Made by a program: the position numbers and the translations under genes. The notes beneath the pieces are model-generated. The model was not told the DNA's origin, ran no database searches, and saw only the letters and a program-made list of their open reading frames with translations. Positions 48,079 to 48,418 of a DNA stretch of 64,000 nucleotides are shown here, in pieces; the stretch's first letter is position 1, and every line of letters starts with the position of its first letter. The stretch is from NCBI RefSeq assembly GCF_910592395.1, contig NC_088313.1:17830500-17894499 (forward strand), read 5' to 3'. This DNA comes from Lineus longissimus (taxonomy: Eukaryota).

Positions 48079-48223
48079 CCTAAGTCGCCAGCCGCCTTCA
48101 CATCAACATTATCATAACCACTACCAATGCGCACGACAACCCGCAAATTCTTGAATTTTTCCAAATCCTCTTTGCTGAGTGTTATTGTGTGCCACAAAAG
48201 GGCAGCTGTGGCTTCAGTCAAAA
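48079..48223 (-). CDS. CtBP: CtBP exon 3a ([49 protein letters not shown]); paired with exon 3b
   Basis: 145 nt. Minus acceptor ctttttgcag|GTTTTGACTGAAGCC, donor TTAG|GTGAGG. Confidence 0.75.
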
Positions 48224-48273
48224 CCTGCAAAAAGACCATACACGATTATCAACCCACTGTTATTGGTTCATAC

Positions 48274-48418
48274 CTAGTTCTCCAGCAGCCTTAACATCTA
48301 CATTATCATAACCGCTGCCCATGCGAACGATAACTCTCAGATTCTTGAATTTTTCCAAATCTTCCTTGTTCAGTGTTATTGTGTGCCATGTAAGTGCAGC
48401 AGTGGCCTCATTCAAAAC
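48274..48418 (-). CDS. CtBP: CtBP exon 3b ([49 protein letters not shown]). Tandem duplicate of 3a, candidate mutually exclusive alternative exon.
   Basis: 145 nt. Own acceptor ttcttcttaag|GTTTTGAATGAG and own donor CTAG|GTA. 5 aa differences from 3a. Confidence 0.65.

Follow-up and report, generated by a model that had tools for sequence, protein, structure and literature searches.

Neighbouring homologous exons can be kept from joining each other by steric interference, in which the intron between them is too short or its branch point lies too close, and exons 2 and 3 of alpha-tropomyosin reportedly behave in this way, as is said to have been worked out by Smith and Nadal-Ginard in 1989. 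Exons 9/10 of let-2 and 5A/5B of egl-15 in Caenorhabditis elegans are steric-interference pairs (PMC4165533), and 57 human clusters have been placed in the same class (PMC5740500). In other cases exclusivity is policed by frameshift and nonsense-mediated decay (NMD), which applies to 60% of human clusters (PMC5740500) and to 14 of 19 clusters of non-3n length in C. elegans (PMC4165533). Here we describe a pair of homologous neighbouring exons that shares features of both classes, in the CtBP (C-terminal-binding protein) gene of the nemertean Lineus longissimus, within a window of 64,000 nucleotides (nt) of contig NC_088313.1 (positions 17,830,500 to 17,894,499; all Lineus coordinates below are those of the window).

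Within the CtBP family, a comparable arrangement occurs in the brachiopod Lingula anatina, where the same exon is duplicated in tandem, with 145-nt copies running from phase 0 to phase 1, AG/GT borders, a very short intron between the copies and annotated isoforms. The two copies in Lingula are far more divergent than those of Lineus (37/48 amino acids), and the second of them, type II (AMVYHH..RDDLKKFKA..RLGSG), is orthologous to annelid exons. Vertebrates likewise have two versions of this segment per organism (e.g. ALMYHTITLTRE versus AMMYHTITL(S/T)R(D/E)D). Unlike in Lineus, this diversity between CTBP1 and CTBP2 stems from duplication of the whole gene and not from an alternative exon within it, and no within-gene variation of exon 3 was found among the vertebrate proteins retrieved, a comparison of proteins and not of genomic loci. 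A full-text literature search found no paper on mutually exclusive or duplicated exons in CtBP.

Two copies of CtBP exon 3

The CtBP gene of L. longissimus lies on the minus strand and carries exon 3 as two tandem 145-nt copies between exon 2 and exon 4, with exon 3B upstream and exon 3A downstream in the transcript. Exons were located by a tblastn search with human CtBP1 as the query and then delimited by reading their splice sites. In a repeat scan of 47000-49500 there was a single family of direct repeats, 48078-48226 and 48272-48420, at a spacing of 194. The scan and the minus-strand reading bear out the tandem 145-nt duplication in CtBP that an earlier note on this DNA had proposed. They also correct it in two respects: the copy that the note called 3b comes first in the transcript, the gene being on the minus strand, and the copy it placed at 48079-48223 lies one base further on, at 48080-48224.

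Exon 3B (48418..48274, minus strand, 145 nt) reads ttcttcttaag/GTTTTGAAT...GAACTAG/gtatgaac, with slashes at the splice borders, or at greater length ...ttcttcttaag/GTTTTGAATGAG...GGAGAACTAG/gtatgaac; its acceptor is cttcttcttAAG/G and its donor TAG/gtatga. Exon 3A (48224..48080, minus strand, 145 nt) reads tctttttgcag/GTTTTGACT...GACTTAG/gtgaggaa, or at greater length ...tctttttgcag/GTTTTGACTGAA...GGCGACTTAG/gtgaggaa, with acceptor tctttttgCAG/G and donor TAG/gtgagg. Each copy thus has its own canonical AG acceptor and GT donor, as previously claimed, and each starts in phase 0, runs through 48 codons and ends in phase 1, one base into a Gly codon. The intron between the copies (48273..48225, minus strand; GTATGAACCAATAACAGTGGGTTGATAATCGTGTATGGTCTTTTTGCAG) is 49 nt long, and contains the donor of 3B and, for 3A, a branch site, a polypyrimidine tract and an acceptor.

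The two copies are identical at 120/145 nucleotides and 42/48 amino acids, and both are open, with no in-frame stop. The amino acid differences, taken from 3B to 3A, are N3T, T10L, N17S, I30V, M33I and E47D, which makes six in 48 codons where five had been counted before. The likeness between the copies ends no more than 2 nt past the exon borders, and the intron flanks cannot be aligned. Of the criteria in use for homologous mutually exclusive clusters (Pillmann 2011; Hatje 2017, PMC5740500), those on sequence, namely neighbouring internal exons of equal or similar length and equal phase that encode similar peptides and have canonical splice sites, describe 3B and 3A; on the presence of exactly one copy per transcript, the evidence consists of automated gene models.

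Two copies could in principle also result from an assembly artefact, for example a wrong join or a haplotype left uncollapsed. Duplicates of haplotypic origin would match almost throughout, flanks included, whereas these copies are only 83% identical, differ mostly at synonymous sites and are surrounded by wholly diverged sequence. The same arrangement is moreover present in the independent assemblies of Lingula and of the annelid Owenia fusiformis, and we regard an artefact as close to inconceivable.

Probable one-of-two usage and its proposed mechanism

We read 3A and 3B as homologous mutually exclusive exons derived by tandem duplication of CtBP exon 3, of which each mRNA would carry one, and we put the probability of this reading at roughly 85%. 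The argument begins with the reading frame. When 3B is joined to 3A, the product reads ...AAGELGFD and is then cut short, codon three of 3A being a stop. When both copies are skipped, the frame of exon 4 is shifted (145 = 3n+1) and stops follow. Retention of the 49-nt intron gives 339 nt, which restores the frame arithmetically, but TAA is the fifth codon of the intron; in Lingula, by contrast, retention of the corresponding intron stays in frame. Inclusion of both copies or of neither, and intron retention, all lead to premature stops, and therefore no productive mRNA with both or neither can be made through the annotated sites. The earlier argument from frame for the use of one copy out of two is accordingly supported by the 3n+1 length, the equal phase and the stop on double inclusion.

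The isoform pair is already in a public database in the form of automated gene models. Among the Lineus RefSeq entries named ‘C-terminal-binding protein-like’, X1 (XP_064631601) carries 3B and X2 (XP_064631602) carries 3A; both have 411 amino acids and are identical outside exon 3. A further model, X3, also carries 3B, with a 100% match to the 3B translation. As automated models, X1 and X2 hold one copy each, and none holds both.

Both copies also bear the marks of constraint. Comparison of 3A with 3B by the Nei-Gojobori method gave a non-synonymous divergence (dN) of 0.067 and a synonymous divergence (dS) of 0.966, or omega = 0.07, and 17 of the 25 nucleotide differences fall at third codon positions. 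When 25 substitutions were placed at random in 100,000 trials, the mean was 16.6 +/- 2.0 amino acid changes and the lowest count 8, compared with the 6 observed (P < 1e-5), and only 48% of these trials remained free of stops. Both 3A and 3B have kept every residue of the segment that does not vary across a 30-sequence CtBP alignment. These values indicate strong purifying selection on both copies since they diverged.

The possibility that one copy is a non-functional pseudo-exon, and that only the other is ever spliced, could draw on the splice sites of 3B, whose acceptor (AAG) and donor (gtatga) look weaker than the CAG and gtgagg of 3A. However, such low omega at a dS of about 1 speaks against it, as does the fact that seven or fewer amino acid changes were never seen in 1e5 random trials. 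In addition, AG/GT sites and exact length have been kept in both copies although the flanking intron has diverged beyond alignment, and both copies are used in RefSeq models. We consider a pseudo-exon very improbable; the decaying copy that the earlier note had named as one way in which its proposal might fail is rejected by the omega value and by the contrast of 6 with 16.6 changes. Putative mutual exclusivity is thus well supported by sequence logic, by selection and by the existing gene models.

As to how exclusion may be achieved, the 49-nt intron has a single YTRAY match, TTGAT, whose A, the putative branch point, is 25 nt away from the donor. Hatje et al. 2017 assign steric interference where donor and branch point are <50 bp apart (PMC5740500), and the 3B-3A intron lies within this limit, though the minimum in Lineus may differ. 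For C. elegans, Kuroyanagi et al. 2014 showed that too-short introns together with NMD enforce exclusivity (PMC4165533). The other introns of Lineus CtBP measure 287, 509, 902, 560, 304 and 303 nt from exon 2 to exon 8 and are longer beyond exon 8, and the 49-nt intron is several-fold below every other intron measured in the gene.

In the proposed mechanism, the 3B donor would have to share about 25-35 nt of the 49-nt intron with the 3A acceptor and its branch site and polypyrimidine tract, such that U1 at the 3B donor and U2AF/U2 at the 3A acceptor would not assemble productively together. Any transcripts that escape with both copies, or with neither, would be frameshifted and would be expected to enter NMD. 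The likely arrangement is a steric block imposed by the tiny intron, with frameshift and NMD behind it. It resembles the steric-interference exons of alpha-tropomyosin, let-2, egl-15 and the human clusters in having homologous neighbours and a too-short intron or close branch point, with the difference that failure of the intron to splice was shown by experiment in those systems, whereas for Lineus we infer it. The short-intron clusters of C. elegans consist of 3n exons, while the Lineus exons are 3n+1, so NMD would act here as a second safeguard. The sequence features of the frameshift/NMD class, namely a length not divisible by three and premature stops on double inclusion or double skipping, are likewise present in Lineus, where the role of NMD is predicted from sequence.

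Two further mechanisms were considered. Incompatibility of U2 and U12 splice sites is ruled out, as the donors of exon 2 (gtgaga), 3B (gtatga) and 3A (gtgagg) are all of the U2-type GT-AG kind; the U12-type donor sought was (A/G)TATCCTT. For docking and selector pairing of the Dscam, 14-3-3 or ATE1 type, no convincing complementarity was found near the exons in 47364-48863. In an inverted-repeat scan of this interval, the exon neighbourhoods gave only 10-13-nt matches, and the strong stems, of 25 and 21 bp, are both confined to the intron that separates 3A from exon 4.

Several observations weigh against mutual exclusivity, or against the steric form of it. The RefSeq models are automated, and in principle alignments of proteins from other species, which would fit one copy as well as the other, could have seeded them. 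The protein collection searched contained no Lineus transcript fragments, the clusters of X1-X3 holding only NCBI/UniRef entries, and a 109-residue query across exon 2, 3A and exon 4 returned no fragments from Lineus or any other nemertean, the best match being 84% identical. All six substitutions are conservative (N/T, T/L, N/S, I/V, M/I, E/D), and 4/6 fall at columns that vary among CtBPs. With regard to mechanism, C. elegans splices introns down to ~40 nt (PMC4165533), so removal of a 49-nt intron may be feasible, with exclusivity perhaps due to NMD and regulation and not to a steric block. As 2 kb separates the two copies in Owenia, an exon-3 pair does not in general require steric interference.

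Origin of the pair

Orthologous CtBP loci, which the earlier note had suggested checking for the duplicated exon, gave a divided answer: the exon is duplicated in Lingula and Owenia, and single in Tubulanus, Lottia, Mya and Lamellibrachia. In L. anatina (locus L002), the type I exon at 3724-3868 and the type II exon at 3925-4069 are separated by a 56-nt intron, compared with at least about 160 nt for the other introns of the gene. RefSeq isoforms of Lingula differ in exactly this exon, with type I in X1, X3 and X4 and type II in X2. In O. fusiformis (locus L003), type I (2708-2852) and type II (4881-5025) are both intact, in the same order and with AG/GT borders. Owenia is therefore like Lineus in having two intact 145-nt copies of exon 3, but its 2,028-nt intron makes steric exclusion inapplicable there. 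The deposited Owenia protein has the type II form only, and the type I copy is probably an unannotated alternative isoform. Lamellibrachia has only type II, and Lottia and Mya have only type I. Tubulanus polymorphus, a palaeonemertean and the one nemertean compared with Lineus, has a single type-I-like copy in a gene whose introns are about 75-134 nt.

In neighbour-joining trees, bootstrap values of 95-99% unite the type II exons from Lingula, Owenia and Lamellibrachia in one clade. This clade spans annelids and a brachiopod, and the type I/II duplication therefore predates the annelid-brachiopod split. The Lineus copies do not follow this division. 3A and 3B match each other at more positions (120/145) than either matches Tubulanus (110-112), and the motif ‘EATAAL’ is common to 3A, 3B and Tubulanus, where other animals have EAVGAL/M. 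Bootstrap values for 3A with 3B were 96% with nucleotides, 65% with amino acids and 36% with codon positions 1+2, while 3A grouped with type II in 0-2% of replicates. 3A has none of the type II signature residues (A[ML].YHH...R[DE]DLKKFK...RLG[TS]G), and both Lineus copies are type-I-like. No type II remnant was found in the 64-kb window, and the ‘YHH’ type II proteins found in Logan/JGI had an annelid-like look (THAP-containing N-termini), with none showing the nemertean ‘EATAAL’.

Based on these comparisons, the Lineus duplication, or the last gene conversion between its copies, is placed within the nemertean lineage and apart from the type I/II pair. The Lineus pair would then be either a younger duplication inside Nemertea or an old pair that was homogenised about one synonymous substitution per site ago. 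One form of the latter holds that the pair is the ancient type I/II pair itself, with its type II exon overwritten from type I by gene conversion. Order and layout are as in Lingula, with two 145-nt copies and a tiny intron (49 versus 56 nt), and a type I/II pair older than the annelid-brachiopod split may have been carried by the nemertean ancestor. On the other hand, Tubulanus has a single copy and no type II remnant, the Lineus window has none either, 3A never groups with type II, and the saturated introns yield no positive trace of conversion. We hold such overwriting to be possible but on the whole doubtful, and loss of the old pair with a later re-duplication would fit the same data.

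Gene context, protein position and meaning

The remaining CtBP exons frame the pair on the minus strand. Exon 2 (48863..48706) ends ...EIHEK in phase 0, provides the shared upstream donor for 3B and 3A, and matches RefSeq X1, X2 and X3 at 100%. It opens at 48863 with ‘TG GCT GGT’ (M-A-G); the start ATG is split by an intron, and its ‘A’ must be supplied by a 5′ exon lying upstream. Exon 4 (47570..47364; GC ATT GCT... = (G)IAVCNVP...) provides the acceptor shared by both alternative exons and encodes the beginning of the NAD-binding domain together with the leading residues of GLGRVG. Exons 5 (46461..46363), 6 (45802..45677), 7 (45372..45241) and 8 (44937..44767) were placed by the same combination of tblastn and splice sites, and AG/GT borders are found on all of exons 2-8. 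A 125-nt cassette exon (43137..43013) occurs only in RefSeq X3. The coding part of the terminal exon (41799..41603) gives X1 and X2 the conserved CtBP tail ...NHLPKAESSS, with the stop at 41605-41603; in X3 the cassette exon changes the frame of the terminal exon, and this tail gives way to a short unrelated ...EVQPLHFPIA. The swap of tails is reminiscent of the long and short CtBP forms of other animals.

The 509-nt intron between 3A and exon 4 (48079..47571, minus strand) is strongly structured (z = -7.9 versus shuffles). It contains a 25-bp inverted repeat, 47827-47851 and 47975-47999, which is 92% complementary and occurs nowhere else in the window, as well as a 21-bp hairpin at 47668-47713 (arms 47668-47688 and 47693-47713). 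The structure may represent an insertion resembling a miniature inverted-repeat transposable element (MITE) or may be relevant to splicing.

Elsewhere in the window, a neighbouring open reading frame at 614-1348 (plus strand) has a FAM53 domain (E = 6e-22), and 20832-24885 (plus strand) holds exons of a WD40-repeat protein, at 23057-23485 and 24409-24885, and, in 20832-21443, a weak match to an NWD1-like helix-turn-helix. A tandem repeat with a unit of ~928 bp, in roughly three copies of 97-100% identity, occupies 33189-35855, its period being too long for the Tandem Repeats Finder run. At 25026-25281 a 133-nt unit with an internally palindromic look (GAACTACGCCATCGCCATCTTCAGGGCAAGG...CCCTGAAGATGGCGATGGCGTAGTTC) is repeated in tandem (1.9 copies, 84% matches). 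Neither an Rfam scan nor a tRNA scan of the window gave any match.

Some of the related proteins also have unusual structures. An older Lingula model (P0125, 599 amino acids) translates the 56-nt intron in frame and so fuses both exon-3 copies (…AGELGKHWVSNYSCFCISFTTFQVLNEAVGAM…; 3724-4069 of L002). This model and a protein of Lamellibrachia satsuma (P0006) begin with a THAP domain (PF05485). THAP-CtBP fusions occur in C. elegans, and seem to do so in lophotrochozoans as well. The start of exon 4 is repeated in the deposited P0006; the gene predictor may have merged a further exon, duplicated or alternative, into the model, or the repetition may be an artefact of assembly. Three ‘UNVERIFIED_CONTAM’ proteins of Acipenser sinensis (554-583 amino acids) outscored the self-match although they covered only 66-71% of the query, at 72-74% identity, which suggests that their CtBP gene models were merged or duplicated.

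Lineus CtBP aligns without gaps to rat CtBP/BARS (1HKU, E = 7e-177), in keeping with membership of the family, and has Pfam matches to PF00389 at residues 26-340, wrapping the NAD-binding PF02826 at residues 122-305 (E = 1e-26 to 1e-51). In the gapless alignment to solved CtBP chains, residue n of Lineus is equivalent to residue n+12 of human CtBP1-L. The segment encoded by exon 3, residues 54-102, lies wholly within the substrate-binding (catalytic) lobe formed by PF00389 and ends before PF02826 begins, and not at the transition to the NAD domain where the segment had been placed. We presume that V66, the first residue of the exon, is part of the PXDLS-binding cleft.

In human CtBP1 numbering, the six differences fall at N68, M75, T82, I95, I98 and D112. 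M75 adjoins Y76/H77, and I98 is within the active-site loop R97-I-G-S-G101. Human R97 contacts the carboxylate of substrate or inhibitor (PMC5536941), and G101 is a hydrogen-bond partner in the active site (PMC6751206). As it holds the equivalents of these two residues, RIGSG is a substrate-site loop; it had been taken for the nucleotide-binding region, whereas the Rossmann GXGXXG motif is GLGRVG, encoded across exons 4 and 5. Given that all six substitutions are conservative, a difference in cofactor properties between the isoforms is pure speculation; an effect on the dehydrogenase site is conceivable from the positions affected. An AlphaFold model of X2 built on a 30-sequence alignment had a mean predicted local distance difference test score (pLDDT) of 46, with the exon-3 region below 50, and was left out of the mapping of substitutions as unusable.

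Both isoforms could also exist without any function specific to either, in which case the duplication was neutral and, through the 3n+1 length and the short intron, inclusion of one copy has become obligatory; both copies would then be conserved only because each accounts for much of the output of an essential protein, by constructive neutral evolution or with subfunctionalised expression. The conservative nature of the differences and the variability of four of their columns would fit, and Tubulanus, Lottia and Mya manage with a single copy. Against this, the same exon has been kept as a far more divergent pair in Lingula and Owenia, and the Lineus differences at positions 10 and 33 share columns that differ between types I and II, a weak hint of recurrent selection. 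We see a pair devoid of isoform-specific function as quite plausible, with the odds leaning somewhat against it. More tentatively still, and with a considerably greater chance of being wrong than right, exon 3 may have been made mutually exclusive at least twice independently in Lophotrochozoa, once as the old annelid/brachiopod pair and once as the younger Lineus pair, with differences near the substrate pocket (human M75/Y76-H77 and R97-G101) in both pairs, in response to recurrent selection.

Tandem-duplicated mutually exclusive exons are a textbook mechanism, and the Lineus pair leaves knowledge of splicing unchanged. The repeated duplication of one exon, with inter-copy introns of ~50 nt in two phyla, offers an example of exons predisposed to exclusive pairing. 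For the CtBP family, the role of the catalytic site in co-repression is still debated (PMC5536941), and isoforms that vary only in 48 residues including the R97/G101 loop would be handy natural reagents for this question, for which the far more divergent type I/II pair of Lingula and Owenia is better suited than that of Lineus. If two independent origins are true, they would point to recurrent selection for tuning the dehydrogenase or substrate-sensing site of CtBP at the level of splicing, and would provide a natural isoform pair with which to probe the role of that site in co-repression.

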